Sequence record: SRR31156797_6926 | Reading direction: 5' to 3' (one strand) | Length of the DNA stretch: 32,802 nt | Shown here: one piece after another, positions 1 through 28,106 of the stretch | Layout of the letters: each line of letters opens with the position of its first letter | Numbering within the stretch: position 1 is the first letter of the stretch | Position numbers and translations under genes: made by a program | Notes under the pieces: model-generated | Database searches by the model: none | What the model was told of the DNA's origin: nothing | What the model saw: only the letters and a program-made list of their open reading frames with translations

Positions 1-12
1 ATTCGTTAACAT
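1..12 (-). CDS. Probable 5' end of a gene running off the left edge (MLTN...), product unknown (possibly the GerKB subunit)
   Basis: AAGGAG RBS at 23-28 (minus). ATG at 12-10 is open to the window edge, whereas ATG at 17-15 gives only M-K-C-stop. Confidence 0.35.
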
Positions 13-22
13 TTCATGTTAA

Positions 23-180
23 CTCCTTGTATTGTACCTAGATAGAAATTAACTGTTTTGCACATAACCGCTAATGTATGCCTAGTCACTAGTTATTAGT
101 GAACCAGTGACTAGCTATACTATAGCTGTGTAATGCATATATTGGCGTTGGTTTCGCTTTTACTCTATAAAAAGTTCCTT
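23..180 (-). repeat. Copy 1 of a duplicated ~150-nt non-coding leader element
   Basis: 23-84 aligns to 25256-25319 with 55/62 identities and one 2-nt gap. Weaker similarity continues to ~180. Confidence 0.85.
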
Positions 181-190
181 GTATTATTCG

Positions 191-391
191 TTAGTATTGA
201 ATACCTAAAGCATCCATAATAATTGTAACCAAGCTAGTTTCATTCATATTTGTATAATAGTAGATAGTAAATGCTATAGTAATAACAGCAAATGAAACCC
301 AGACAATCATTTCTTTCTTTAAGTTTTGTTTAGATAAACTTCGTATTTCGAAAAATCCAACAATGATTATAGTTAGAATAACGTATATCAT
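191..391 (-). CDS. Small two-TM membrane protein of the germinant receptor operon (GerKD/'D subunit'-like)
   Basis: 66 aa with two hydrophobic segments. Start overlaps the gerKC stop (ATGA). Confidence 0.75.
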   Translation of the reverse strand: MIYVILTIIIVGFFEIRSLSKQNLKKEMIVWVSFAVITIAFTIYYYTNMNETSLVTIIMDALGIQY

Positions 392-1566
392 TTTTTCTTT
401 TCCGTATTTGTTATAGGCTCATTGATATTGTAAGTACGATTAATAGTAGAATCAATTTCTAATGAAATCTGCATATTATGAAATACTTCCTTCCATGAAT
501 CTTCAAATTGTTTTGTTTCTTTTGGGTATTTATGATAAATAGCAGAGCATATTCCTATTGCATCTAATCCTCTGGACTGTAAGAAAATAATCGTTTTGGA
601 TATTTCTCTTTCTATATATTTGTTCTGTTCTTCAACTATGTATTGAATCATTTCATCTGTAAAAATATCGTCGTTGCCTTGATATTCACCAATATTAGTA
701 GTAAATTCAATTTTTATATTTGCTGATGGTAAGTCGGATGAAAATTCAGGCTCAATTTTAGTTTTACTGCTGATAATTTCTAAAGATATATTATCACCAT
801 CTTTATCCTTTACTATAATTACTCCAGATTCTATTTCGTCAATCACCCAGTTCATTCCTCGTGCCATTTTATCATCAAGATAGCAAAATAGTTTATCTTC
901 ATCAAATATACCGTATCCCCTGAGAACAATATCTTTCTTATCCTTATCTTCTTCACTTCTTTCTTTGTACATACCAGTATCTACATACGGAATATACAGA
1001 CAGCCTGTATCGTTACTTAACATTTGCATATAATTTAATATTGAAATATCAGTGCTTTCTGAAAGGTGCTCAGTATCCCCTATAAGAGAAACCAGAGTGC
1101 TATCGATTGAGTGTTTTTCAGTATTTGTAGCATTTATGAAATCATATGCTGTATATCCTCTTGCAATTAAAATGTCGCAGTTTTGATTGACTTCATGATC
1201 CCTGGACAAATAATCAAGATACTTTGCTATACCATTCTTCGCTGTTTCTTCACCAATAATAACAAAATGCATATGTCCTAGCATAATATCCCTATCAACA
1301 TAAGAGTGAAAATTTCTTATTGCATCAAACATTGTTTCTCCATTGGAAACGAATACAGAGGATGTTGGTCCACTGGAATCGGTGCCGCCTGCATGCATTA
1401 TCTCAACCAAAACTGCTGTCAGTTTAACTGATTCTCCTTCTTGATCAATGCCTAATACAGCTACAGTTTCTCGAAATTCAATTTCTGCTTTAGGTGTAAT
1501 TAAGCAGCCAGATGTACAAGTAGCTAAAAAAATTAATAGGACTAAAAACATCTTTTGTTTTAACAT
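388..1566 (-). CDS. gerKC: Ger(x)C family spore germination lipoprotein
   Basis: Signal peptide with lipobox TSG-C; motifs 'EIE...AVLGID', 'G.TMFDAIRN' and 'GH...VIIGEETAKNG...LDYLSRD'; directly downstream of gerKA. Confidence 0.92.
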   Translation of the reverse strand: MLKQKMFLVLLIFLATCTSGCLITPKAEIEFRETVAVLGIDQEGESVKLTAVLVEIMHAGGTDSSGPTSSVFVSNGETMFDAIRNFHSYVDRDIMLGHMHFVIIGEETAKNGIAKYLDYLSRDHEVNQNCDILIARGYTAYDFINATNTEKHSIDSTLVSLIGDTEHLSESTDISILNYMQMLSNDTGCLYIPYVDTGMYKERSEEDKDKKDIVLRGYGIFDEDKLFCYLDDKMARGMNWVIDEIESGVIIVKDKDGDNISLEIISSKTKIEPEFSSDLPSANIKIEFTTNIGEYQGNDDIFTDEMIQYIVEEQNKYIEREISKTIIFLQSRGLDAIGICSAIYHKYPKETKQFEDSWKEVFHNMQISLEIDSTINRTYNINEPITNTEKKK

Positions 1567-1567
1567 A

Positions 1568-3058
1568 TTATGACTGCCTCTTCTTATTCTTTGGTTTTAG
1601 GTGATAGGGGCGGAATTTCATCATAAACTGTGGTAGCCTGATAAATGAATCATCAATTTGGAATTTTCTAGCTCCTGCAAATGGTGATAAGAATGGTACA
1701 CCCAAAGATTCCAGAGTGGCAAAATGAAATAGTATAATTAAAAAGCCAACTACTATACCAACAAGACCTAGTATAGTACCAAGAATTACATTTGCAAGCA
1801 AACATATCCATAGAGAGAAGTTCATTTGCTTATTGGGAATAGCTAGACTGGCAATAGCAGAGCCAGCAATTACGACAATAACGCCGGGTGAGACCAGCTT
1901 TGCATTAATTGCCGCTTCTCCTAATACAAGACCTCCAACTATTGATATAGTTGCATTAATTGAAGCTGGTATTCTACTACTTGCTTGAATTAATGTGAAA
2001 AATGTAAATATCATAAATAGTATTTCCACAAAAATCGGAAATGGTGTTTCTATCTTTGATACAGAAATTGCATATAGTAAGGATTGAGGTATCATTTCTG
2101 GGTGAAATCGTGTAAGTGCAACATAAAATCCCGGCAGTATAATTGATATGAAAAATAATACATAAGTTAAAAATCTAAACATAGATGATACAATATAGTT
2201 TGTTCCATATTCTGTAGTAGTCTGGAACATGTCTGCAATTACTACTGGCATTACCAGCCCATATGGAAGCCCATCTACAATAACACAAACTTTACCTTCT
2301 AGTAAGCTTGCCGCTACAGCATCTGGCTTTTCTGTAGATTGGACTAGAGGGAACAGAGTATATTTATTATCAGATAAATGAGGTACTATATCGGATAAAA
2401 ATGCGATTCTGTCTACCTGCAAATCATTTAGTTTTCGCTTTACAGTCTCAACAAATTCCATATTACAGATATTTCTCATATACAAAACAGATATTTGAGT
2501 ATTTGTCTGTGTTCCAAAGGTACTTTCTTCAATAGTTAAGTTTGGATTTTTTATTATCAGTCGTACGAGGGAGGTATTTGTTCTTAAGTTTTCTACAAAA
2601 CCCAGCTTCGAACCAAATTCACTGCCTTCTTCCTTTGATTCTCCTAATGCACGTACTTCATATCCTCTGGTTTCAAATGCAATTGCCTTTTCTTCGCTGT
2701 CAAATAAAAGCAGAGAAAAACCAGACATTAGCATATTTAATGCTTCTTCAGCATTATCCATCACTTTTGTTGTAGGGAAATAGGCAGCTCCGTCTAGGAT
2801 TCTGATTATTGCTGTTTTTTCAGATTTTACATCTTTAAGTATATCATTAATATTAATAGGTTTTAAAATAAAATCACTAACCTTGTCAATATCAGTCAGA
2901 CCATCAATGAAAATTATTGTAAGAGGCAGCTTTTTGTTACCGCATACAAAAGTTTGCTTATATACGATATCGTTACTTTCACCCAAAATCGACTTTAAGT
3001 TTTCTAATGTAACTTTTATGTTTTTTGATTCTTCATTTTTCTCTTGACTATTATTCAT
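1568..3058 (-). CDS. gerKA: GerA family spore germination receptor subunit A
   Basis: Motifs 'GFVENLRTNTSLVR', 'TEKPD..AASLLEGKV...VDG.P', 'FHPEMIP' and 'SIVGGLVLGEAA..A.LVSP'. Confidence 0.95.
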   Translation of the reverse strand: MNNSQEKNEESKNIKVTLENLKSILGESNDIVYKQTFVCGNKKLPLTIIFIDGLTDIDKVSDFILKPININDILKDVKSEKTAIIRILDGAAYFPTTKVMDNAEEALNMLMSGFSLLLFDSEEKAIAFETRGYEVRALGESKEEGSEFGSKLGFVENLRTNTSLVRLIIKNPNLTIEESTFGTQTNTQISVLYMRNICNMEFVETVKRKLNDLQVDRIAFLSDIVPHLSDNKYTLFPLVQSTEKPDAVAASLLEGKVCVIVDGLPYGLVMPVVIADMFQTTTEYGTNYIVSSMFRFLTYVLFFISIILPGFYVALTRFHPEMIPQSLLYAISVSKIETPFPIFVEILFMIFTFFTLIQASSRIPASINATISIVGGLVLGEAAINAKLVSPGVIVVIAGSAIASLAIPNKQMNFSLWICLLANVILGTILGLVGIVVGFLIILFHFATLESLGVPFLSPFAGARKFQIDDSFIRLPQFMMKFRPYHLKPKNKKRQS

Positions 3059-4211: not shown

Positions 4212-6482
4212 TTACTTGAAGTAGTTTACTAAGTATACAAGTGGTGAGTTCCAATATATAGCTATTTCGTTGGTGGAGAAGCTGGATTCACTGTCTGCAT
4301 AGCATTGGGCATGAGGTCTGTTCGCTAATTCATATTTTGCATATGAATCTTCTTTATCAAAATTTGGTCCGCCTACAACAAGTCCGGGAAATGCTTTGCC
4401 CACAGTTTGAACAATTCTATGATGCGGGCGTTCTGCAGCATTTGTACCAAATCCGGTAATATATGAAATTCCAAGAGCGTTTTTACCCAAGAGATAGTTT
4501 AGCTGTTCAAATGCAGTATCAACATAAATACTGTTATTCTCACAATCATTTGCTATTAACAGCAGCATTGCATTATCGGCGACAATTCCATTGCTGCCCC
4601 AAACATATTGGGATTTGTGCAGTGTAGTTTGATACATGTCTTTGCGGCTATCGAGTACGATGTCATCTGCTGTACTTATCAATGTCTCTTTCATTTCTGT
4701 GTAAAGTGCTTTATCCTGCATTTCCTCAGGAAGCTTGAGGTACGCAAAGACACCATATAATCCCATTGAAGCCCAGCTCATGCCAGTTTCTATTTCATTA
4801 TTCTTTAGATAATCGTGATACTTTTCATCTTTTGTTATGCTGTATAATTCAGCTGCAGCCCAAAATCTTTCATCGTTTGAGCTTGAGTCCCCATACTCAC
4901 CAGTGGATATATTTGAAGGATTCTGGAAGCCATGTGCATCTGGATTGTCTTCTAGCCATTTCCAAGCTAGTAGTGCACGTTCAATACATGTATCGGCAAA
5001 ATCTTCATCTATTTCTCTGTACATCCTAGAAGCCTTTGCCATAACAGCTGCAAAATCCGCTGTTGCCATTGCAGATACCGGAGAGATGTATTGCTTTTCT
5101 GTAATTTCATCCGGCATATGATCATAGGTAAATGTTGCAGTTGAGACTTTGTGATATACTCCGCCTGTGGAAGTATCCTGCATCTTCAGGAACATATCTA
5201 GTTCATACCGTACTTCATCCAAAATATCTGGTATACTATTACCTGATTCGGCAATGCCATTATTGTCAGAATAGATACTGGGATTTCGTTCATAAGACAG
5301 CATTAGGTCTATGACTGCCTTTGAGCCAGGAGTTATATACCTGCCAAAGTCGCCAGCATCATGCCAGCCACCCGTTACATCTTTCATGATGCCAGAATCT
5401 ATAATCTCTGCTTCGTTTGTATGACATGCACCATGTGCAAAATCACCAACTAAATCTGATGTAAGATCCATTGAACATCTCTGATAGTAGAACATTTTCA
5501 TTACTGCTGATGATAATTCATCATAGACAGTTGGTGAGATATCAAAGTCATAAGAGCTTTCGTAACCATCTACTTCAATATGATATCTTCCTGATTCAGA
5601 AAGCATAGAGAAGTCCCCAAGCCTTATAATTTCACCGCTTATAGGATTCTCATATGGCTCACCCATACTGCCAATTAAGACAACTTCACTAGTATCAGAA
5701 ACAATTTTGAATTCACTTATTTCAGTATCAATATTTGCAAATGCAGCTATTTTTACGTCACTTGGTTTGTAGCCAACTTGATTTATTCTGATATTATTTT
5801 CAACATCCAATTTACTTAGTACAAAGGGTATTTGGACATCATCAGTTTTTTTAAGTGAAACATTATCAATTCTAATTTCATGTGTTTCTAGGCTGCTATC
5901 ATCAGTTTTACCAAGCAGAAAAGTAAGAGTACATGAAGTATCAGTTGGATAATCCATGATAAAATCCATTGTAAATGTAGAAGATTCTTCGGTTATTTTA
6001 ATATCTGACTGAAAATATTGTGTGTAAGGATCGCTGCTTTTTTGCAGGCTGACTATGCCAGTGCGTAAAGTAGTAGATGATGCATCGAATTCTAATGTGT
6101 AGCTTATTCCTTTTTTTAGAGTAATTTCATTTTGTAAGAGCTGAACGGCGTGTTCTGTGTCACCTGTATTATCAATTTTTAGTAATGCATCTTCCTCAGA
6201 ATCGACTAATTCACATAAAGCATCTTCTGTATAAATATTCCACCCATCGTGTTCATTGCTGAAATTACCATTTGATATCATTTCTGTGGGTATATCCATT
6301 GTCATGTCGGAAATTCTTGTACTTACATTTTGAACAATTATATTATCTTCAGGTGATTCAGTTGATTGAATATTATTATTTTCAGATAAGTTATCTCCAA
6401 TATTCGTATTCTCACATCCGTAGAATATAATCAGCGTTATAAATAATAGTGCTATAAGTAATGTAATGCTCTTCATCTTCAT
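4212..6482 (-). CDS. Lipoprotein glycoside hydrolase family 9 (CBM4/9 + Ig-like + GH9 catalytic domain)
   Basis: GAGG RBS before ATG 6482; lipobox FYG-C; CBM4-like 'NGNFS...W'; Ig-like 'IRINQVGY'; GH9 motifs 'GGWHDAGD', 'RPHHR' and 'NEIAIYWNS'. Confidence 0.93.
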   Translation of the reverse strand: MKMKSITLLIALLFITLIIFYGCENTNIGDNLSENNNIQSTESPEDNIIVQNVSTRISDMTMDIPTEMISNGNFSNEHDGWNIYTEDALCELVDSEEDALLKIDNTGDTEHAVQLLQNEITLKKGISYTLEFDASSTTLRTGIVSLQKSSDPYTQYFQSDIKITEESSTFTMDFIMDYPTDTSCTLTFLLGKTDDSSLETHEIRIDNVSLKKTDDVQIPFVLSKLDVENNIRINQVGYKPSDVKIAAFANIDTEISEFKIVSDTSEVVLIGSMGEPYENPISGEIIRLGDFSMLSESGRYHIEVDGYESSYDFDISPTVYDELSSAVMKMFYYQRCSMDLTSDLVGDFAHGACHTNEAEIIDSGIMKDVTGGWHDAGDFGRYITPGSKAVIDLMLSYERNPSIYSDNNGIAESGNSIPDILDEVRYELDMFLKMQDTSTGGVYHKVSTATFTYDHMPDEITEKQYISPVSAMATADFAAVMAKASRMYREIDEDFADTCIERALLAWKWLEDNPDAHGFQNPSNISTGEYGDSSSNDERFWAAAELYSITKDEKYHDYLKNNEIETGMSWASMGLYGVFAYLKLPEEMQDKALYTEMKETLISTADDIVLDSRKDMYQTTLHKSQYVWGSNGIVADNAMLLLIANDCENNSIYVDTAFEQLNYLLGKNALGISYITGFGTNAAERPHHRIVQTVGKAFPGLVVGGPNFDKEDSYAKYELANRPHAQCYADSESSFSTNEIAIYWNSPLVYLVNYFK

Positions 6483-6536
6483 AATAAACCTCAAAAATAT
6501 ATAATAAAGTGTATAGATATAAATAAGTATATTTTT

Positions 6537-6565
6537 ATAGTAGCACTTTAGTATTTCCTTGTAAA
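6537..6565 (-). promoter_or_regulatory. Putative sigma-A promoter of the GH9 gene
   Basis: TTTACA-N17-TACTAT with extended -10 TG. Confidence 0.5.
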
Positions 6566-6749
6566 TAATAGAAAACATTTCATATGAAATAGCTTGATTG
6601 CTTTCGGTGATTTTAGTTAAATTATAAATAATACAGCGTATTTATTTCTATTATTCTATTATAATATATAAAATAGAGTTTCTTGATTTCTTTACTACTA
6701 CACAAATAAATGCTATATTTATTACATTATCAGCAGTAAGGGGATAATA

Positions 6750-7357: not shown

Positions 7358-8386
7358 TTAAATTGAATTAGCGATGTCAAAAACCAATTCTTTAGTTGCG
7401 TTCCATCCTAAGCAAGGATCAGTAATAGACTTACCATATACATTGTTGCCGATTGGCTGAGAACCTTCCTCTAAGTAGCTTTCAATCATTAATCCTTTTA
7501 TCATTTTGTTCAAAATCTCATTATAATTCTTACTCTTCATAATTTCCATGGCTATTCTAGGCTGCTCCATATATTGCTTTGCAGAGTTTGAATGATTGCA
7601 ATCAACTATAATAGCTGGGTTTATTAGATTTCTTTCTTCATATTTTTCTGCTAGATTAATAAGATCCTCATAATGATAGTTCGGAATGCTTCTGCCATAT
7701 GAATCTACACATCCCCTAAGAATGGCATGAGCGAACTCGTTGCCAGTGGTTTCTACCTCAGTACCGTTGTAGATGAATCTATGCTGAATCTGTGCGGCCT
7801 TAATGGAGTTAAGCATAACTGATAAATCTCCAGAAGTTGGATTCTTCATACCAACTGGAGTATCTATTCCGCTGGCTGTTAACCTATGCTGCTGATTCTC
7901 TACTGAACGAGCACCAATTGCATTATATGCTAATAAATCAGTCAGATAAGCATAATTTTCTGGATAAAGCATCTCGTCTGCTGCTGGCATATGATAATCT
8001 TTTAGTGCTTTTATATGCAGACTTCTTATAGCCTTAACGCCTTCACAGAGGTCAGTTTTCTTTTCAGGATCAGGTTGATGAACCATTCCTTTGTAACCCT
8101 CGCCGGTTGTCCTTGGCTTATTTGTATATATGCGAGGTATGATTACCAGTTTATCATTAACTTTATCCTGAAGTACTTTTAGTCTGCCTATATACTCAAG
8201 TACTGCTTTTTCGTTATCTGCTGAACATGGACCGATTATTAGTATTAGCCTTTTATCAGAGCCGAGCAGTATATTCTTGATATCATCTATTCGTTTTTTT
8301 CGGATTTCAACCAGGCCTTTGTCCAGAGGAAGTAAATCCATGATTTGATTTGCTGTTGGTAATTTTTTAAGTACTGAAAAACTCAT
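7358..8386 (-). CDS. aroF: 3-deoxy-7-phosphoheptulonate (DAHP) synthase, class I-alpha
   Basis: Motifs 'IIGPCS', 'KPRTTG.GYKG', 'IGARS.E.Q.HR..ASG', 'GMKN', 'DCNHSNS' and 'YGKSITDPCLGW'. The aroF/G/H paralog type cannot be resolved. Confidence 0.93.
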   Translation of the reverse strand: MSFSVLKKLPTANQIMDLLPLDKGLVEIRKKRIDDIKNILLGSDKRLILIIGPCSADNEKAVLEYIGRLKVLQDKVNDKLVIIPRIYTNKPRTTGEGYKGMVHQPDPEKKTDLCEGVKAIRSLHIKALKDYHMPAADEMLYPENYAYLTDLLAYNAIGARSVENQQHRLTASGIDTPVGMKNPTSGDLSVMLNSIKAAQIQHRFIYNGTEVETTGNEFAHAILRGCVDSYGRSIPNYHYEDLINLAEKYEERNLINPAIIVDCNHSNSAKQYMEQPRIAMEIMKSKNYNEILNKMIKGLMIESYLEEGSQPIGNNVYGKSITDPCLGWNATKELVFDIANSI

Positions 8387-8575
8387 TTTAAACCTCAGTT
8401 AGTTATTTTGTATTCTTTGATATTGTCCAATATACATACAGTTTAGGGTATTTTACCATTTTTTTTAACTAATAACTACCCTTAGTGTAAAAAATAACAG
8501 CATTTTTGTATGGTAACAAAATACAGACTTATAAAAATAAGCCTGCATTATAATTTCTTTATGATTTAACAGCTA

Positions 8576-12427: not shown

Positions 12428-13075
12428 ATGTCAAAATTGTATTATAGGTATGCAGTAATGGGAGCAGGCAAATCAACTCAGCTTCTGCAGATAGCATATG
12501 ATTATGAGAAAAATAATAATAAGAGAATATTGTGCCTAAAACCTAAATCAGATACAAAAGGTGACAATTATATTGTAAGCAGATTAGAGGATGGTACTAT
12601 AAAAAGAGAGTGCGACTTCCTGATTGAATCCCAAGAAAACTGGCTGTATTCTACGCTGGAGAGCTGGATAAGTTTATCCATTACAGAAGGTAATCCAATT
12701 AAATTAATACTTATTGATGAATCCCAGTTTATGTCAAAAGATAATGTATGGGATTTGGCAAGAGTAGTAACCTATTTAGATGTGCCTGTAATCTGTTTTG
12801 GTTTAAAGGTAGATGCGCTGGGCGAGCCGTTTATCGGCAGTACTCATCTATTTGCTTTAGCTCAGGATATTGAGGAAGTTACAACCAGAGCTATTTGCAG
12901 AATTTCAAAAAGACCTAAAAAGGCAACAATGCAGATACGATATGTTGATGGCAAGGCTGTATTTGAGGGAGAACAAGTAGTTATTGAAAACAACGTTGAC
13001 GTTGTATACGAGCCAGTATCTTTGACAGAATATATTAGGATAAGGGACAAAACTTTTGGGAAAAAACAAGACTGA
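12428..13075 (+). CDS. tdk: Thymidine kinase (TK1-like)
   Basis: P-loop 'MGAGKST', plus 'LIDESQF', 'PVICFGL..D' and 'F.GS..LFALA'. Confidence 0.93.
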   Translation: MSKLYYRYAVMGAGKSTQLLQIAYDYEKNNNKRILCLKPKSDTKGDNYIVSRLEDGTIKRECDFLIESQENWLYSTLESWISLSITEGNPIKLILIDESQFMSKDNVWDLARVVTYLDVPVICFGLKVDALGEPFIGSTHLFALAQDIEEVTTRAICRISKRPKKATMQIRYVDGKAVFEGEQVVIENNVDVVYEPVSLTEYIRIRDKTFGKKQD

Positions 13076-13673
13076 CAGAAATGAACTTAAAAAGAATAAC
13101 GATTACTCAAAACTAAAAACACTTTTTTTCATTTGCCTGAGATTGGGAGCATTTACTTTTGGCGGCGGTTATGCAATGTTTCCGCTGATGGAGAAAGAAT
13201 ATGTTGATAATCGTAAATGGTTCAATGATGATGAAATGATTGATATATTAGCAATTTCACAATCATTACCAGGGATGATATCAATAAATGCATGTATCTT
13301 AATTGGGTACAGAGTATGTGGTGCTTTAGGTTCAATCATTGCTGTTTTGGGGCTGTCTTTGCCGTCACTTGTTGTCATGTCAATAGTTTCATATTTTTAT
13401 GTTCAGTTTAGTTCAAATGAATATGTACTAGCTGCCTTGAAGGGTATAAGAGTAGCTGTAATAGCATTGCTGGTGCAGGCAGTAATTAAACTAGGTAAAC
13501 CGGGAGTCAAAGGAGCTTTTGGATGGATTATGGCAATTGCTGCATTCTTGCTCTCTATTTTATCTTCAGTTCATTTGATATTTATTATTTTATCCAGCGC
13601 AGTAATTGGAATTATATATACTTATATCAAGGAGAAAAACGACCTTAATACAGTAGAGGAGGGGAACAAGTAA
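13056..13673 (+). CDS. chrA: Short-chain chromate transporter (CHR), first half
   Basis: Motifs 'GAFTFGGGYAM' and 'SQSLPG.ISIN'. The TTG start is uncertain. Confidence 0.9.
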   Translation: MGKNKTDRNELKKNNDYSKLKTLFFICLRLGAFTFGGGYAMFPLMEKEYVDNRKWFNDDEMIDILAISQSLPGMISINACILIGYRVCGALGSIIAVLGLSLPSLVVMSIVSYFYVQFSSNEYVLAALKGIRVAVIALLVQAVIKLGKPGVKGAFGWIMAIAAFLLSILSSVHLIFIILSSAVIGIIYTYIKEKNDLNTVEEGNK

Positions 13674-14251
13674 TGCTTTTGAAAATGCTTTTTACCTTCT
13701 TTAAAATAGGATTATTCACTATAGGAGGCGGTTATGCAATGATACCGCTTATATCCCAATATTTAACGGATAATAATTGGATGACAACTAGTGAGATTGC
13801 TGATATAATAGCCATTGCGAAAATGACACCTGGACCTTTTGCTGTAAATACTGCAACCTTTTCGGGGATGAAGTTGTTTGGAGTTTTAGGTGCAGTTGCA
13901 TGTACTATCGGGGTTATACTTCCCTCATTAATTATTACAATTATCGTAGCAAAATTTTTCTTTAATTTTGGAAAGCACAAAATAGTACAGGGAGCATTAG
14001 CAGGCATCAGACCTACTGTAGTAGCACTTATTGCTAGTGCGATAATATCAGTTTCACTAATTACTTTATTTAAGGTAAGTGAATTATCCCAAGTATTATC
14101 AGGGCTTAATAATCTGGATGCATTTTCAGTTATCATCTTGATTGTTAGTTTATACTTGTTAATAAGAAGAAAAGCACATCCGATCTTTGTTATAGCTTTA
14201 TCTGGAGTGATTTCAATTGTGATGTATATGTTTATTCCCAATATGTTTTGA
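13673..14251 (+). CDS. chrA: Short-chain chromate transporter (CHR), second half
   Basis: Motifs 'FFKIGLFTIGGGYAM' and 'MTPGPFAVNTAT'; TAATG stop-start coupling. Confidence 0.92.
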   Translation: MLLKMLFTFFKIGLFTIGGGYAMIPLISQYLTDNNWMTTSEIADIIAIAKMTPGPFAVNTATFSGMKLFGVLGAVACTIGVILPSLIITIIVAKFFFNFGKHKIVQGALAGIRPTVVALIASAIISVSLITLFKVSELSQVLSGLNNLDAFSVIILIVSLYLLIRRKAHPIFVIALSGVISIVMYMFIPNMF

Positions 14252-15405: not shown

Positions 15406-15711
15406 TTAGTGGATAAATAGCATTGCTGGTGATATCTTTAGCCGTACTCCATCAGGTTCGGCATAATAGAATCCTACGAATGATGGAGGTTTATTTTGTC
15501 TGACAATTTGCTTTGCTCTTTCAAAATCTTCATAGTCAAATGCAGCTGACAAACCACAACCGATTTTTATTTCATGTGGGGTGTTCATTACCCTAGCTTT
15601 AGCTCCATGTGCATTTAGTTCCTTTATAAACAGCAAGACCTGCTGTCTAGAGCGAAATGCACCAATAATAAAGTCTCTGTTCATTGTACCTATACTTATT
15701 GTTTCTTTCAT
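15406..15711 (-). CDS. DUF3343 family protein (putative S/Se carrier-like)
   Basis: Motif 'F.S.......K.L.......TP.EI..GCGLS'. Start is either 15711 or 15684. Confidence 0.8.
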   Translation of the reverse strand: MKETISIGTMNRDFIIGAFRSRQQVLLFIKELNAHGAKARVMNTPHEIKIGCGLSAAFDYEDFERAKQIVRQNKPPSFVGFYYAEPDGVRLKISPAMLFIH

Positions 15712-15786
15712 TTCTATCACCAATTTTTTAAGTTTTAATATAATATATTATACTTTAGATTTTTTTGTGTATGAAGGGATAATCCT

Positions 15787-16914
15787 ATGATATATTTAGA
15801 TAATGCTGCAACTTCATTTCCTAAACCTGATATAGTAAAAGAAGCCGCAGTCAGGGCAATGAGTAAGTGCGCTAATCCTGGACGAAGCGGTCATAAATTA
15901 GCTTTGACTGGTGGGAATGTTATTCTTGAAGCGAGACTTAGGCTAGGTAAATTTTTTAATGTGAATGACCCTACCAGCTTTGTATTTACTTTAAACTGTA
16001 CTGACGCATTGAATATGGCAATAAAGGGAGTACTGAAAAAAGGCGATCATGTAGTTACCACCGCTCTGGAGCATAATTCTGTTCTGCGGCCTCTTCATAC
16101 TCTAAATAGCTGTGGCTATATAAGCTATACAATTGTTCTTCCGGACAAAAATGGCATTATTCAAAGTGATAATATTATTTCATCTATAAATCCTCATACT
16201 AGATTAGTAGTTGTAACTAATGCATCCAATGTGTTGGGAAGGGTTCAACCTATAAAAGAAATTATCAAAGCTTGTCATGAGAGGAATATTCTCGTCTTAG
16301 TGGATGGGGCACAAGCTGCAGGTAAGTGTAGGATTGATTTAAATGACATACAGGCTGATTTATATGCATTTCCAGGTCATAAGGGACTGCTGGGAACAAT
16401 GGGCTGTGGTGTGCTTTTTGTGTCTCCTAAAGTTGGTATTATATCAACTAGACAGGGAGGAACAGGGTCAATGAGCATGTGTCTGTATCAACCTAATGAT
16501 ATGCCTGACAAATTAGAAAGCGGTACACCAGCAGTTGACGCTGTGGCTGCACTGGCAGCAGGCGTTTATCTGGTGGATAATTATTACGACAAATTTAAAA
16601 AAAATGTTAGTGCGCTGAATAAATATCTTCACTCAGAATTAGCTAGAAATAATAAAATTGTTCTGTATTCCACAAGTAACCAGACAGGAGTTGCAACATT
16701 TAATGTAGAAAATACACCATCGTATATTGTAAGTGAATATCTGAGTGAGAATAATATTGCATGTAGAGCAGGTTACCATTGTGCACCGCTTTGCCATAAA
16801 TATATGGGAACAGTAGAGCAGGGAGCTATCAGGTTCAGCATTGGTCCGTTCAATACAAAAAGAGACATCGATTACGCCATTGACTGTTTACGTAAATATA
16901 CAAATAGATTATAA
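15787..16914 (+). CDS. Class V PLP aminotransferase, cysteine desulfurase family
   Basis: Motifs 'IYLDNAATSFPKP', 'EHNSVLRP', PLP-Lys 'FPGHKG', 'ESGTP' and catalytic 'RAGYHCAP'. Confidence 0.93.
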   Translation: MIYLDNAATSFPKPDIVKEAAVRAMSKCANPGRSGHKLALTGGNVILEARLRLGKFFNVNDPTSFVFTLNCTDALNMAIKGVLKKGDHVVTTALEHNSVLRPLHTLNSCGYISYTIVLPDKNGIIQSDNIISSINPHTRLVVVTNASNVLGRVQPIKEIIKACHERNILVLVDGAQAAGKCRIDLNDIQADLYAFPGHKGLLGTMGCGVLFVSPKVGIISTRQGGTGSMSMCLYQPNDMPDKLESGTPAVDAVAALAAGVYLVDNYYDKFKKNVSALNKYLHSELARNNKIVLYSTSNQTGVATFNVENTPSYIVSEYLSENNIACRAGYHCAPLCHKYMGTVEQGAIRFSIGPFNTKRDIDYAIDCLRKYTNRL

Positions 16915-21084: not shown

Positions 21085-23262
21085 TTAGTTATCCTCTATT
21101 GGTATACAAAGTGCACCATTGTTATTAATATTATGAATAGCAATTCCGCTTTTAGCTGCTTCATTATTATATAGATCCATGCAGTAATTACTGCTGTTTA
21201 TTATAACATATTTTGTATTAACATATGGTATATTTTTTATCCTTGCCTTTGACCACCTAGAGCATATCAAGATGTGCTCTCCCTGCAGTGCACCCTCACG
21301 TAGTTTATAGGTATCTAAATATGCATAGGAGCTGTCGTCAGTCTCAATAATAGCATAATAATTGATTATTGCTTTTTTGTTTGCTTTAAATTCATCAATA
21401 ACTACTGATACATTGCCTATTTTAATAAGTTCATTAATTGGGTGGTGGTTTTCGCCTAAAGTATCACTGCACAGAGTTTCGGGAAGGTAGAAATCCGAAA
21501 TTCCCAATACACTTAGGTTATCAATTAGTTCATAATAATCTTCCATATCATTTCCAGAATATATAAGTGTATCGAGTTGTTTAATGTTTAAATCTTCTGC
21601 TACCCTTAATGCACCTTTGTCAAGGTTATTGATTACAATAGCATTTTGATTGCCAGATTCTATAAAAACAAATACATCGTCATAGCCTGCAAGTATTGAA
21701 ATCTCTTCTTTATCCGAGTCGATTGCAGAAAAAGTTAAAAGTGCAGCAAGTAATGTAATTCCAACTATCAGTCTTAGTCTTTGCCTGTTTTTTACCAGAT
21801 AATTTGTCATCAGAAAAACTATTAACATAAGAGCTATAACAGCAAAAATGCTAGGGGTATCTATTGATATTGTAAAATTTAATTTATGAAAAAAGTTTAC
21901 TAATTTATTAATGCCTGATGATAATAAGTCAATTACTTTAATAATAGCTAAACCTATATATGGAATATAGAACGTCACTGAATAAATAAGCAGAAGAATT
22001 ACCATTATGGTTATTAAAGGTATAAAAATAATGTTCCAAATAGGGGACAACAAAGATATATGCCCAAAATACCTCATGAGCAATAAAAAATTGAATAAAC
22101 TAATAGCTGTTGATGTTAAGAAAATAGCAATAGGATAGAATGTTAATAGCTTTTTATCACTAAATCGTTGATTTAATGGACCAATGACTACAATTATTGC
22201 AAATACTGAAGATATAGATAGAATAAAACCAGTATCAATAATGTATAGTGGATTTATTAGCAGCAGTATCAGAATAGTTATTGATAATATATTTATTGCA
22301 TCTTTTCGTATACCATTCATATTATATATCAATATAATGAGTGCCATTATACTGGCTCGTATTAATGAAACCCGGTTTCCAATAACAATTATCATCAGCC
22401 CGACGACTGCTATGGTTACAAGATTACGTAATAGATACCGCATTCTAATTTTTAAAGTAATAAATACGAAAACACCAATAATGATTCCCAAGTGCAGGCC
22501 AGATATAGCGAATACATGAGATATGCCTAAATCGCTGCATTTATCATAGAATTCGTCATCTAGATAGTCTTTTTCACCAGTGGATAGGGCGTACACAAGC
22601 CCCAGATTTGCTCCGTTTAGAGACTTTAGCAGATTATTATATATGCTTTTATTAATTCTTTGAGTTATACTGGGAGTATAATCACTTGAACTAATAATAG
22701 CTATTCGTTTCTCAAAGACGGTTGCTGTATATTGGATATTATTTGTCATATAATATCTTCGCTCGTTGAAAAATCCATCTAATTGGGCAACTGCAGGCAA
22801 TTCCAATTCCGCAGATGTAAGTATTCGGTCACCAGCTTCAACCTTGTTTTTTGGCGAAACATTGGTGATTATTATATCTGAATCAATATCATCATTTCCA
22901 ATAGTTACATTAGTCAGATGATATTTTGAATATTTTGCGTAATTACTCACTTCAATCACATCTCCAGTAATATGACACTCATCAACAGGGGTTACTGGAT
23001 TTTGATACCATTGGGGTATTACATTAGAACATAATAAATAGCCGACAAACAGGCTAAACAACGCAATAAAATATCTGCATTTCTTTAACCTTAATGTTTG
23101 AATTAAAATAATAATTCCTAAAACATCTAGCAAACCATATATTATAAGCATGTTTACATTGTAGATTAATGCCAGATAAGTACCGATTGCATAAAAAAGA
23201 GCATACCCTACAAAGGGACGCTCAATCATTAATACGAATTTAATACTATCTTTTTTACTCAT
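21085..23262 (-). CDS. comEC: ComEC/Rec2 competence protein with degenerate C-terminal beta-lactamase-like domain
   Basis: Competence-domain motif 'GISHVFAISGLH', plus 'SLIRASIM' and 'NPL...D.GF.LS'; upstream of holA. Confidence 0.9.
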   Translation of the reverse strand: MSKKDSIKFVLMIERPFVGYALFYAIGTYLALIYNVNMLIIYGLLDVLGIIILIQTLRLKKCRYFIALFSLFVGYLLCSNVIPQWYQNPVTPVDECHITGDVIEVSNYAKYSKYHLTNVTIGNDDIDSDIIITNVSPKNKVEAGDRILTSAELELPAVAQLDGFFNERRYYMTNNIQYTATVFEKRIAIISSSDYTPSITQRINKSIYNNLLKSLNGANLGLVYALSTGEKDYLDDEFYDKCSDLGISHVFAISGLHLGIIIGVFVFITLKIRMRYLLRNLVTIAVVGLMIIVIGNRVSLIRASIMALIILIYNMNGIRKDAINILSITILILLLINPLYIIDTGFILSISSVFAIIVVIGPLNQRFSDKKLLTFYPIAIFLTSTAISLFNFLLLMRYFGHISLLSPIWNIIFIPLITIMVILLLIYSVTFYIPYIGLAIIKVIDLLSSGINKLVNFFHKLNFTISIDTPSIFAVIALMLIVFLMTNYLVKNRQRLRLIVGITLLAALLTFSAIDSDKEEISILAGYDDVFVFIESGNQNAIVINNLDKGALRVAEDLNIKQLDTLIYSGNDMEDYYELIDNLSVLGISDFYLPETLCSDTLGENHHPINELIKIGNVSVVIDEFKANKKAIINYYAIIETDDSSYAYLDTYKLREGALQGEHILICSRWSKARIKNIPYVNTKYVIINSSNYCMDLYNNEAAKSGIAIHNINNNGALCIPIEDN

Positions 23263-23275
23263 AGGAAAATGCTGA

Positions 23276-24001
23276 CTAAATATTGATTACTAACTCAGGC
23301 TCTGCTGCAGCTGTATACTTAAATTCATCTTTTGCTTCATGCAGACGCTGTTCAACATCAACACCAGGTGCAAAATGAGTTACCAAAAGCTTTGCAACTT
23401 CTGCTTCACGTGCCATCATTCCTGCCTCTTTGGCTGTTGCATGAGGTCTGTTAACAGGAGCATCACCAGCTGAAAAAGCTGCATCGCATATTAATAAATC
23501 GCAGAACTTGGCAAATGATGGTATTTCATCAGTGTAACATGTATCTCCAGTGTAAACTAATTGATTGTTATCACACTCTATCTTTGTAGCGTAGGATAAT
23601 ATAGAATGCTTAACCTGACGGAAACTTACCTTTACATCTTCGATTTCAAGCATTCTGCCAGTATCAATGATACTTACATTGAAATACTCAAATGTTCTAA
23701 GTATATAGCTCTCTGCTTCCGGACTGTCAGGAATGTATAGCTTTATTGGTGGAATTTCATTCAGCATTAGTGCGTAGCCAAGTACCATCAAATCTGACAT
23801 ATGATCATAGTGGAGATGACTGATTATAATAGCGTTTAATTCCGCTAGATTAATTTTGCTTGTTAATTTGGGTAATATGCCGCTTCCGCAGTCAAGTAGT
23901 ATCTTTGCTTTATCTGTTTCAACTAAATAGCCTGAACAAGGATTATCCTTGGTTGGATATGCACCGCTGTTACCTAAAACTGTTATTTTCATTTTACTCA
24001 T
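23276..24001 (-). CDS. MBL-fold metallo-hydrolase (YhfI/RNase Z-like)
   Basis: Motifs 'SGYLV', 'LLDCGSG', 'SHLHYDH', 'YTGDT' and 'LLVTHF'. Confidence 0.9.
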   Translation of the reverse strand: MSKMKITVLGNSGAYPTKDNPCSGYLVETDKAKILLDCGSGILPKLTSKINLAELNAIIISHLHYDHMSDLMVLGYALMLNEIPPIKLYIPDSPEAESYILRTFEYFNVSIIDTGRMLEIEDVKVSFRQVKHSILSYATKIECDNNQLVYTGDTCYTDEIPSFAKFCDLLICDAAFSAGDAPVNRPHATAKEAGMMAREAEVAKLLVTHFAPGVDVEQRLHEAKDEFKYTAAAEPELVINI

Positions 24002-24628: not shown

Positions 24629-25249
24629 TCAGGATTCTTCAGAATTCTGTATTTTTTTAGTTGTCAGGTTCCCTTCGTAGGAACTTCCCAGCGATACAAC
24701 CATGCTTAGAGCCGCTTCAACTGGAATATCTACCATGATTACATCCTCAATATTATAGAGCATCAGGAATCCATTGGTGGGATTTGGAGTTGTAGGAACA
24801 AATACAAATATTTTATCCATATTGTCAATAGATATATTATCATTCGTAATAAATCCTACACTATAGCTTTCCTTATTTGGAAACTTTACAAAGACGACTT
24901 GCTTAAAATTATTGCTGTCTTTGTTAGAGAAATTCCTAAGCATAGTTCTTAATGGTTTATACACGATTTTTATTATTGGAATATTCTCCAGCATTTGTTC
25001 AAACTTTTTTGTAATACTGTGTCCTACAATGCGATTTGATATAAAGCCGATAATATATACTAATGAAATTGTAACTACCAGACCCAAGCCTGGTACGTCT
25101 AATTGAAATTTTTCATATATTATATTCCCCAGGATTGAGTCAAGTAAATTGAATACCTTTGTAATAATCCAGGCACTTATACCTATAGGCAACACCAGCA
25201 AAAGACCTGTAATAAAGCTGTTTTTTATATTATTTAATGCCTTTTTCAT
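24629..25249 (-). CDS. DUF502 family membrane protein
   Basis: Motifs 'FITGLL..LP', 'IPIIKIVY' and 'VFVPTTPNPTNGFL'. Confidence 0.92.
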   Translation of the reverse strand: MKKALNNIKNSFITGLLLVLPIGISAWIITKVFNLLDSILGNIIYEKFQLDVPGLGLVVTISLVYIIGFISNRIVGHSITKKFEQMLENIPIIKIVYKPLRTMLRNFSNKDSNNFKQVVFVKFPNKESYSVGFITNDNISIDNMDKIFVFVPTTPNPTNGFLMLYNIEDVIMVDIPVEAALSMVVSLGSSYEGNLTTKKIQNSEES

Positions 25250-25255
25250 ATTTTG

Positions 25256-25406
25256 CTCCTTGTATTATGTACTTAGCTAGAAATTAATTGTGTTACACAT
25301 ATCCACTAATGTATGCCTATTTTTAATTTAAACAGAGATTAATCATACTATCGCTATGCAATTCATCCTTTAGCCACAGCTTGGTTTTTATGTAATAAAA
25401 CTCCTT
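25256..25406 (-). repeat. Copy 2 of the duplicated non-coding leader (5' UTR of the DUF502 gene)
   Basis: Aligns with 23-180; preceded by TTTACA-N16-TATAAT (25440-25413); ends at the AAGGAG RBS. Confidence 0.85.
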
Positions 25407-25495
25407 AGTGTAATTATATAGTAATTATAAAATATGTAAATTCATTTTTTAGCAGACTTTGCAATAGATACAGTATTATAATTAATTAATGTAAA

Positions 25496-26743
25496 ATGCA
25501 TATTTATTCTGTATTCTTAAATAATAAATTGATGGGGATATTAAATTCTGAAAAGTACAATGAGATTATTAAGTACTATATATTATTTTTTGTATATGCT
25601 GTATGTATAGGCGGCTATGTACCATACTCTACACTTTTTTTACGGAATCTTGGACTAAACAGTCAGCTTATTGCCAGGATAGTTATGATAATTCCTGCTG
25701 CAGCAATAATTTTGCAGCCTCTATTGGGTAAAGCTGCAGATAAGATGAATAAACCCAAAATTATTGTAACAATTCTAGTTTTAGTTATACTTGTGGGTAT
25801 TCTAAGCTTAATAATCTATCAGAATACAGTTATAATCACTATTGTTATGTCATTTATTGCTATATCGAATGGTGCCGTATACTCAATATTGGTTGCACAA
25901 TCTCTTATATATTTAAGGAAACATGATCTGCTATCGAAATTTAGTACTGTCAGATTACTGTATTCTATAGGTTATGGTGCTGTGAGTCTAATCATGACTT
26001 TTTTGTTCAAGGATAATATTTCATTAGCATTTAGGATATCTGTTGGATTTGGTATTGTTACATTGATAATGGTACAGACAATAAAATGGCACAGCGAAAA
26101 ACCGTATTATAACAAAATAAAGATTCTGGGTATTCTAAGGAAAAGGGAGCTGACATTTTTTCTTGTTTTTAGCTTGCTATTATCCATAAGTACAGCTCAG
26201 ACATATACTTATTTACCTATATTATACAAGGAGCTTAATATTTCTGACAATATGTATGCTCTTAGCTCATTACTGATGATAATTAGTGAAATTCCAATCT
26301 TCTTAGTATTTTCGAAGTGGTATAAGAAATTATCGGTACATAAGATAATCTTAGTTCCAATAGTCAGCATTTTAGTAAGGACTTTGTTGCTGGCTATGAC
26401 TGACAATTTGATAATAATTCTTCTGTCAAATTTATTAAACGGTTTAGGATTTGTATTAATACAGCTTACCATTACTCTGTACGCCAAGAATAAAGTAAGA
26501 GAAGAAGAATTGTCTACTCTACAGTCATTTATAACCAGTGTGATATACAGCGGTGCAAGGCTGATATCTGCGCTTCTTGTTATGGTACTTATTAAATCAT
26601 ATAGTATAAAGCATATACAAAAGTTAAATTCAATGTATATGCTTGTTGTCTTAATTATCTATTTCATTTATTATGTAAATCGTAATGGTTTTATCGCAGA
26701 TAATACTTCATTACACGATAATCCCCCCAATAAATCTTGTTAG
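25496..26743 (+). CDS. MFS transporter (LacY/nucleoside:H+ symporter-like)
   Basis: About 12 TM segments; motifs 'QPLLGKAADK', 'FSTVRLLYSIGY' and 'SEIP'. Start may be 25532. Confidence 0.85.
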   Translation: MHIYSVFLNNKLMGILNSEKYNEIIKYYILFFVYAVCIGGYVPYSTLFLRNLGLNSQLIARIVMIIPAAAIILQPLLGKAADKMNKPKIIVTILVLVILVGILSLIIYQNTVIITIVMSFIAISNGAVYSILVAQSLIYLRKHDLLSKFSTVRLLYSIGYGAVSLIMTFLFKDNISLAFRISVGFGIVTLIMVQTIKWHSEKPYYNKIKILGILRKRELTFFLVFSLLLSISTAQTYTYLPILYKELNISDNMYALSSLLMIISEIPIFLVFSKWYKKLSVHKIILVPIVSILVRTLLLAMTDNLIIILLSNLLNGLGFVLIQLTITLYAKNKVREEELSTLQSFITSVIYSGARLISALLVMVLIKSYSIKHIQKLNSMYMLVVLIIYFIYYVNRNGFIADNTSLHDNPPNKSC

Positions 26744-28106
26744 GATGAAGGAAATCGTTTGCAATATCCTCTGGCAAAGTAATATTCTCAGTTTCAATAC
26801 TTAAATCAGAGAGATTTTCCATGACTTCATTCTGCTGAGTACTGAAAGCAGCTAATTCGCCGGAAGAAATCATGTCCATCATTTTATATGATGTATATTC
26901 ATTCACATTAGTGGTATTTAAGGATAGGCATAGTAGTATAACAGCTATTATTACAGATGCCACTTTGCTAAAACCTATATCAATACCTTTTTGAGAATAA
27001 TACCCCATAGTGTTTATGCTAATCAGAATAATAGCAATTTGCAGTATCATAAATCTCATATTTTCAACTCTTAAGGGACCTTTACTGCCGAGACCATACA
27101 TAACAGGAACATATTGTGCCAAAAACAGCAGTCCGATAATAGCTGAAGCAATTAAAGGATGTACAAATTTTATCTTACTGTTGCCTGTAATTTTTTTATA
27201 ATTTGGAATTAGCAATATCATAACCGGCAGTACTAAAGATAATAATATCCATTTTGGCAGTTCTATAAACATATCCCGCACACTATAGAGCGCAACATTG
27301 ATAAGCGAAATGCTTTCATATTCTGATGCTCGCATACTGTTGCCGGGAGCAAGTACATTTAATAAGAAACATACAATAAATATTACAAACAATGATAGGT
27401 AATAGTATCTGTCCCTTGTTTTCTTGATTAAATTATAAAGTGTGAAAAGAGCAAAGCCACAGGCGAAAACTAGACCCATTGGATAGTTTGAACCGCCTAG
27501 ATATACTAATATTAATGTAAGTAATATGAATAATACAACTCTCCAGAATTTCCTCTTGCTATATGTAAACCAAGTAAGTCCAGCAATAAATAAACAAAGC
27601 AAGCTAAATGCAAACTGATAGTGTATACTGCCATTATGCCAATAATACGCCTCATATATTGAGGGCATAAGCTGTGTGATTGTAATAAAGTAAGCACACA
27701 GGATTATTGTAATGTATTTGGACTTTGCTTTTAGGAAATACTTATTCAATGTATAGGCGACAATTGACTGAGAAGCAAGGCTTAGGATAAACATTGCAAA
27801 CAGACAGAACCTGTAGAATTCTATGGAAAATACTCCGGGCTGTAATGACATCATAAACATGGAGGAATAAGTACCCTGCCATGTAAAATAGTCGTTCTTA
27901 ACTCGCTCAATTGCTACCTTTACTGTTGCAAATATATCGTGAGAAGTCTGGTATTCACTTCTGGCATACCTGCCGTATAAGAAATCGTCAGTATTTATTA
28001 TTGCATGATTGAACAAAACCAGCATGGGTGATATTGCTATCAGGATAATCAGTGCACAGATAATATTAACTTTATGCTTGTTTAAAAAGAGAATAAACTT
28101 ACTCAT
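26691..28106 (-). CDS. DUF6056-like multi-TM protein (putative GT-C glycosyltransferase)
   Basis: N-terminal TM followed by 'DDF.Y', 'YFTWQGTYSS', 'EAYYW..GS..Y' and 'APGNSMR'. Confidence 0.65.
   Translation of the reverse strand: MSKFILFLNKHKVNIICALIILIAISPMLVLFNHAIINTDDFLYGRYARSEYQTSHDIFATVKVAIERVKNDYFTWQGTYSSMFMMSLQPGVFSIEFYRFCLFAMFILSLASQSIVAYTLNKYFLKAKSKYITIILCAYFITITQLMPSIYEAYYWHNGSIHYQFAFSLLCLFIAGLTWFTYSKRKFWRVVLFILLTLILVYLGGSNYPMGLVFACGFALFTLYNLIKKTRDRYYYLSLFVIFIVCFLLNVLAPGNSMRASEYESISLINVALYSVRDMFIELPKWILLSLVLPVMILLIPNYKKITGNSKIKFVHPLIASAIIGLLFLAQYVPVMYGLGSKGPLRVENMRFMILQIAIILISINTMGYYSQKGIDIGFSKVASVIIAVILLCLSLNTTNVNEYTSYKMMDMISSGELAAFSTQQNEVMENLSDLSIETENITLPEDIANDFLHPNKIYWGDYRVMKYYLR

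Follow-up and report, generated by a model that had tools for sequence, protein, structure and literature searches.

Two diverged copies of one upstream cassette with a conserved Shine-Dalgarno-proximal core in a clostridial genome

In the 32,802-nt stretch of DNA analysed here (record SRR31156797_6926; hereafter the window), two similar non-coding sequences lie about 25 kb apart in one genome, each 5' of a gene, and they raise the question of what kind of element would be kept in this way. The initial annotation, made from the letters alone, took them for an undescribed structured leader RNA co-regulating two loci, with a shared regulatory module or a leftover of gene duplication as fall-backs; the two fall-backs are both possible in the light of the results below.

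Host lineage and genes around the two copies

The window (G+C 32%) belongs to a spore-forming member of the Clostridia that is scarcely covered by public data. An operon of the GerA family shows that the organism makes spores. Exact look-up of window proteins in a collection of 15 billion proteins found none of the six; the closest homologue of the DUF502 protein is 46% identical (65 matches among 360 candidates) and that of the cysteine desulfurase 69%, and the named cysteine desulfurase matches, e.g., from Paramaledivibacter, Gottschalkia and Caloranaerobacter, are 44-48% identical. With the nearest homologues of window proteins at 46-69% identity, the lineage is very thinly represented publicly.

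The gene behind copy 2 encodes a membrane protein of the DUF502 family, and its predicted N-terminus matches the N-termini of homologues when these are aligned by eye. It is followed 3', on the minus strand, by genes for an ECF-type S component, an MBL-fold protein, ComEC and HolA (Pfam). ComEC (725 aa; 21085-24001, minus strand) carries Competence and DUF4131 domains only, and the 241-aa MBL-fold protein is encoded separately just upstream of it, with a gene start that overlaps the ECF S-component gene at its end. An MBL domain is often found at the C-terminus of ComEC itself, and ComEC with the separate MBL-fold protein may represent a split arrangement. On the far side of copy 2, an MFS transporter gene (25496-26743, plus strand) and a DUF6056 gene (26691-28106, minus strand) are convergent and, as called, overlap by 53 nt (26691-26743).

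Copy 1 lies at the end of a germinant-receptor operon (191-3058, minus strand) that has the A and C subunits, the B subunit (spore permease) being nowhere in the window; that the gene past position 1 might be the missing B subunit is speculation. The 66-aa ORF nearest to copy 1 found no match in Pfam, NCBIfam or homologue searches. Between the two loci are a GH9 cellulase with CBM4_9 and Ig-like domains (4212-6578), a selenium/sulfur-carrier cluster (15406-16914) and two neighbouring half-size chromate-transporter genes (205 and 192 aa; 13056-14251, plus strand), a tandem pair of paralogous halves with a common 64-nt repeat of 72% identity. The features that bear on the repeat are collected in Table 1.

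Table 1. Positions of the two cassette copies, their parts and the adjoining genes in the window
Feature	Position	Strand	Basis or remark
Copy 2 of cassette, -35 hexamer to SD and ATGAAA of DUF502	25244..25441	-	blastn against 209..12; two-sequence nhmmer profile
Copy 1 of cassette	12..209	-	3' end 11 nt from window edge; homology limits by shuffle tests
Putatively constrained core, copy 2, TAGGCATACATTAG to AAGGAG	25256..25319	-	55/64 columns identical
Putatively constrained core, copy 1	23..84	-	repeat search, shuffle test, column identity
Invariant 14-mer TAGGCATACATTAG, contains CATACATT(A)	25306..25319; 71..84	-	exact in both copies
Invariant 10-mer TTAATTTCTA	25278..25287; 43..52	-	exact in both copies
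Shine-Dalgarno (SD) AAGGAG of DUF502	25256..25261 (copy 1: 23..28)	-	read from sequence
5'-proximal SD-like AAGGAG, then weak A/U hairpin	25401..25406 (copy 1: AAGGA 176..180)	-	read from sequence
Sigma-70-like promoter TTTACA-16-TATAAT, copy 2	25413..25440	-	11/12 match
Hairpin of 13 bp, 7-nt loop, one G-U pair, copy 1 only	82..114	-	accounts for the fold of copy 1 (z -5.0; 0/200 shuffles as good)
Perfect 19-nt palindrome, two GTTAAC sites, copy 1 only	5..23	-	-6.2 kcal/mol; 0/200 shuffles as good
DUF502 membrane protein gene, behind copy 2	24629..25249	-	Pfam PF04367, E 9.6e-27
GerA, upstream of copy 1	1568-3058	-	Pfam
GerAC, upstream of copy 1	388-1566	-	Pfam
Orphan 66-aa ORF, upstream of copy 1	191..391	-	long hydrophobic stretches

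Extent of the repeat and conservation of its core

A blastn comparison aligned the two copies at 69% identity over ~200 nt (E 7.8e-22). In the repeat search an ungapped core, 33-84 against 25268-25319, was identical at 45 of 52 positions (87%), and the local alignment of the core scored 44 as against 8.4 +/- 1.6 in dinucleotide shuffles, with none of 500 shuffles as good. The 55 identities in 62 positions first noted between 25319-25256 and 84-23 were reproduced, as 55 over 62/64 positions including a 2-nt indel, and the weaker similarity noted for ~90 nt further 5' proved to be significant alone: the 5' flank scored 27 in comparison to 10.3 +/- 1.7 in dinucleotide shuffles (0/500 as good). 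The extent of 23-180 originally given for copy 1 is indeed duplicated, but the homology is longer and runs through the promoter up to the -35 hexamer (~209 in copy 1, ~25441 in copy 2), its 3' limit being the SD and ATGAAA. In the 120 nt upstream of the -35 limit no similarity between the copies was detected (375 of 500 shuffles as good). Since homology reaches from the -35 hexamer to the ribosome-binding site, the duplicated unit is a complete promoter-to-SD cassette, whose 5' end in copy 1 overlaps the final 18 nt of the 66-aa ORF.

A nhmmer search of the window with the two-sequence profile recovered no copy besides these two. A candidate third copy at 8462-8490, resembling 25385-25413 at 79% of 29 nt (E 0.047), was not recovered by nhmmer and is probably a chance match; it falls in the region upstream of a DAHP synthase gene (7358-8386, minus strand), and its partner is the 5' end of the DUF502 leader. 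Outside the window, a 20-nt degenerate pattern of the core matched two loci in public genome contigs, without likeness beyond the pattern; plasmid and phage collections gave no match. A MITE or target-site duplication, considered on account of AATACAAGGA on both sides of copy 1, found no support: the same motif is present in both copies, and no terminal inverted repeat was evident.

Conservation is distributed unevenly along the cassette. In the core 55 of 64 columns are identical (86%), as against 73/129 (~57%) in the 5' flank (Fisher p = 4.2e-5), and the copies differ within the core by seven substitutions and one indel. Inside the flank, identity is alike in the promoter part (18/31) and in the distal leader (55/98); the distal 90 nt have thus fared no better than the promoter, which in copy 1 has decayed, unlike what would be expected of a 150-nt structured element. 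The change from ~57% identity into the perfect block formed by the 14-mer, at the 5' edge of the core, is sharp. This 14-mer has no other site in the window at up to two mismatches, and TTAATTTCT, the first nine bases of TTAATTTCTA, occurs twice in the window, once per copy. From this pattern the core appears to be under purifying selection, although a gene-conversion tract of later date would look alike when there are just two copies to compare. No known binding motif for a protein or an RNA was recognised in it.

The same pattern could be a neutral leftover, in which a gene, perhaps DUF502, was duplicated with its upstream region and the identity of the core reflects later gene conversion or chance unevenness. 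Homology of the entire unit from -35 to ATGAAA fits such an origin, as does the abrupt passage from the flank into the perfect block; the core has however accumulated substitutions and an indel, hence any conversion was not recent, and the high-identity block stops at a functional landmark, the SD, as drift would not predict. Of the 11 nt visible behind the ATGAAA of copy 1, seven agree with the DUF502 coding sequence after a 4-nt gap, in phase with the second ATG of copy 1, as a duplicated gene would have it, but this match is not significant because 22-30% of control 11-mers do equally well (7/11 is reached by 29.7% of 330 11-mers taken from 33 other genes and by 22.3% of 5000 random ones). 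No MLTN start was found among the eight best DUF502 homologues. We consider a purely neutral origin doubtful, with a real chance nonetheless of being right. If the second gene is a DUF502 paralogue, the case is one of plain gene duplication, and if it is an unrelated gene, one of promoter or leader reuse; it could be either.

Predicted folding, ribosome-binding sites and reading frames

A riboswitch-like leader of ~150 nt, sensing some signal and governing the two genes, would suit the long 5' UTR of ~157 nt that the sigma-70-like promoter, if genuine, predicts for DUF502, and the presence of a common sequence in the upstream regions of two genes. No known family accounts for the sequence: Rfam 15, run over the whole window, gave no match at gathering score and at E <= 10 returned nothing beyond noise, with scores of 15-23 bits where the cut-offs are 45-140 and all from eukaryotic or enterobacterial families. 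That the initial annotation could not match the leader to T-box, SAM, lysine, glycine, c-di-GMP, c-di-AMP, fluoride or Mn riboswitches agrees with this.

The folding results point away from such an RNA. The minimum free energy of the DUF502 leader is -22.1 kcal/mol, in comparison to -25.6 +/- 3.2 for shuffled sequences (z +1.06, 176/200 as good), so that copy 2 folds worse than its shuffles. The leader of copy 1 reaches z -5.0 because of the 13-bp hairpin listed in Table 1, which is missing from copy 2; strong hairpins are thus found in copy 1 only. The RNAalifold consensus of the two sequences has an energy of -7.55 kcal/mol, and three of its 33 pairs are changed on both sides, a point in favour of a conserved fold; the structure conservation index from the two sequences is however 0.23 (leader) and 0.26 (core), and the consensus energy was reached by 49 of 300 column-shuffled alignments of the leader and by 211 of 300 of the core. 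Taken separately, the A/U-rich cores fold like shuffled sequences (143/200 as good for copy 2, 45/200 for copy 1). The predictions place GCAUA/UGUGY, the only stem that had been proposed for the core, in a different register in each copy. Of the 5' elements described for both copies, the AAGGA(G) and UUUUAU-nnn-RUAAAA sequences are present in each, but their hairpins are of marginal stability, at -0.9 kcal/mol (105/200 shuffles as good) and -2.0 kcal/mol (37/200). No terminator-like site was found on the minus strand in either leader.

The ribosome-binding sites are likewise without sign of a switch. The SD zone of DUF502 has a mean unpaired probability of 0.77, ranking 30th of 34 genes in ascending order (4 of the 33 other genes are more open), and that of copy 1 a probability of 0.80; the models thus show the ribosome-binding site to be open in both copies. 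A switch by SD sequestration, with UUUCU pairing to AGGAG and the 5' AAGGA as decoy, was considered, in which the helix of TTAATTTCTA with the SD would have 10 bp in copy 1 and five weak pairs in copy 2; it was rejected because the SD is predicted to be open in both copies and the pairs in copy 2 are few. Together, the models show the copies to be without a common RNA fold, and the evidence speaks against a structured RNA: Rfam family, stable fold in copy 2, conserved structure and expression platform are all missing (terminator absent, SD open), and the distal leader is conserved no better than the decayed promoter. The structured leader RNA put forward originally is therefore unsupported, and we regard it as very improbable.

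Translation signals and short reading frames were compared as well. Both copies do end at an SD followed by ATGAAA, as first described, but in copy 1 this ATGAAA (17..12) runs on to TGT TAA and opens a three-codon dead end; the frame of a second ATG (12..10) is open up to the window edge. The palindrome of copy 1 spans both candidate starts, ATG 17..15 and ATG 12..10, and could be a copy-1-specific operator or a translational block. The hairpin of copy 1 is situated 3' of the 66-aa ORF and directly 5' of the core, whose first 3 nt it overlaps, at a position where copy 2 has a 7-nt alignment gap; no U-run follows it, and it may be a small palindromic insertion or mark where the ger transcript ends. 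In agreement with the statement that the copies have no ORF in common, none of at least 20 aa is shared. A leader peptide was also considered, from a 7-codon ORF at 25300..25277 that aligns with a copy-1 ORF reading on to 8..6, and found unsupported: its stop is unconserved, its SD poor, and only four substitutions fall inside it. The sequence AUACAAGGA resembles the CsrA SELEX consensus; a CsrA site was set aside, the motif being largely identical with the SD itself. Downstream of the 5'-proximal AAGGAG (25406..25401) no ATG, GTG or TTG occurs within the next 15 nt.

Promoter elements, the role of the core and known systems

The TTTACA-N16-TATAAT promoter reported before copy 2 was found again, reading from 25440 to 25413 on the minus strand. 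Its aligned counterpart in copy 1, TTTAGG-15-AATAAT (~209..183), is degenerate and falls within the end of the 66-aa ORF. The window holds five sigma-70-like matches of at least 11/12 as against 3.2 +/- 1.8 in shuffles, so the promoter of copy 2 is not statistically exceptional.

A second kind of promoter could overlap the core. At the invariant 5' edge, GCATACATTA agrees in both copies with CATAnnnT(A), the -10 pattern of mother-cell promoters, CATACATTA being exact in each, and the -10-like site CATACATT lies ~60 nt 5' of the start codon. In C. difficile, the promoters of sigma-E and those of sigma-K have a common -10 and different -35 elements, ATA versus AC (PMC3789822). The octamer CATACATT is given there (Table S7, PMC3789822) as the -10 of the sigma-E promoter of CD2864, mapped by its transcription start site, and GCATACAATT as the -10 of CD2865. 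The core could accordingly be read as chiefly a proximal sporulation promoter (sigma-E or sigma-K) with a ~50-nt 5' UTR, both genes being turned on in the mother cell and the sigma-70-like promoter of copy 2 serving as a second, vegetative start. Copy 1 adjoins the GerA-family operon and, with an AC (TTCAC) 18 nt upstream of the -10, counts among the eight strict sigma-K-like sites of the window; in copy 2, ATA and AC are both absent at 16-18 bp upstream. Of the sigma-E/K alternative raised in the initial annotation, the -10 thus holds exactly in both copies and a fitting -35 is seen in copy 1 only. The -10 pattern is moreover common by chance (on both strands of the window, CATACA.T n = 11 and CATA...TA n = 57; CATAnnnT in the window, n = 165), and the region upstream of the -10, with a 7-nt indel, is the least conserved. 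Conservation continues for 45 bp downstream of the -10, not upstream, so that the block is more than a promoter alone can account for. Among the literature matches listed for DUF502, none deals with its leader, its regulation or a link to sporulation. We consider it unlikely that the core is mainly a sporulation promoter. When compared by eye with consensus sequences, no promoter of sigma F, G, H, 54 or A within the core fitted both copies, and neither did an operator for Rex, CodY, cre, SpoIIID or GerE.

If the transcribed proximal leader works at the level of its sequence, a single cause covers the whole block, and we infer that the core acts by its primary sequence, not by structure. The reading that we prefer, and to which we give about an even chance, is that one ~200-bp 5' regulatory cassette is present here in two diverged copies, and that its SD-proximal core is constrained and acts through its sequence rather than a fold. 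An old duplication would have put the ~200-bp cassette before two genes 25 kb apart. The core would then be the transcribed, unfolded, A/U-rich proximal part of the leader with a perfect AAGGAG at its end, giving both genes equal translation-initiation and mRNA-level behaviour, and it might possibly be read by a trans-acting factor. In a variant at the DNA level, the edge GCATACATTA would double as a mother-cell -10 of the sigma-E/K type, with a fitting -35 in copy 1 only. A more specific reading, which we hold to be quite improbable, is that the 64-nt core is a new, essentially unstructured 5'-UTR element of an unsampled Clostridia lineage, through which a trans factor (a small RNA or RNA-binding protein) switches DUF502 and the second gene post-transcriptionally, or that a low-GC tertiary fold is missed by the energy models.

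If the core is functional, it would tie DUF502, an uncharacterised membrane family, to a second gene beside a germinant-receptor operon and would offer a first handle on the timing of DUF502 expression. At present the locus is another upstream region used twice within a genome. The chief value of the result is negative, namely that the leader is to be kept off lists of riboswitch candidates until relatives in this lineage have been sequenced.

The cassette can be set against several known systems. 5' mRNA stabilisers of the STAB-SD type were reportedly described by Agaisse and Lereclus in 1996. The likeness would lie in the SD-like AAGGAG at the 5' end of the copy-2 transcript as predicted from the promoter match, far from any start codon and followed by a small hairpin; the difference is that the poorly conserved 5' end is concerned, not the core, that the motif of copy 1 is weaker (AAGGAA) and that the hairpins are marginal. 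With riboswitches and other structured leaders (Rfam 15) the copies have in common the position in a long 5' UTR and the recurrence before more than one gene, and they differ in having no model match, no stable or shared fold and no expression platform. The sigma-E and sigma-K mother-cell promoters of Bacillus and Clostridium (PMC3789822, PMC517825) resemble the core in the exact -10 CATACATT(A) of both copies, its distance of ~60 nt before the start, the spore-forming host and, in copy 1, the AC at 18 nt; they differ in that copy 2 is without a -35 and that conservation lies downstream of the -10, not upstream.

Reuse of similar upstream regions within one genome has been documented at large scale (Nijveen, Matus-Garcia and van Passel, 2012; PMC3575422), and the repeat described here looks like an ordinary case of it. 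The putative mobile promoters of that study are the closest concept. They were sought at -150 to -50, whereas the core here lies at about -70 to -7 and the -150 to -50 zone, part of the 73/129 flank, is ~57% identical; they were also required to precede unrelated genes, and here the window takes in only 11 nt of the gene behind copy 1. The ungapped core exceeds the threshold set for them, 80% over 50 nt, most of them, as here, are without an Rfam family (PMC3575422), and in both cases highly similar non-coding DNA stands before two separate genes.
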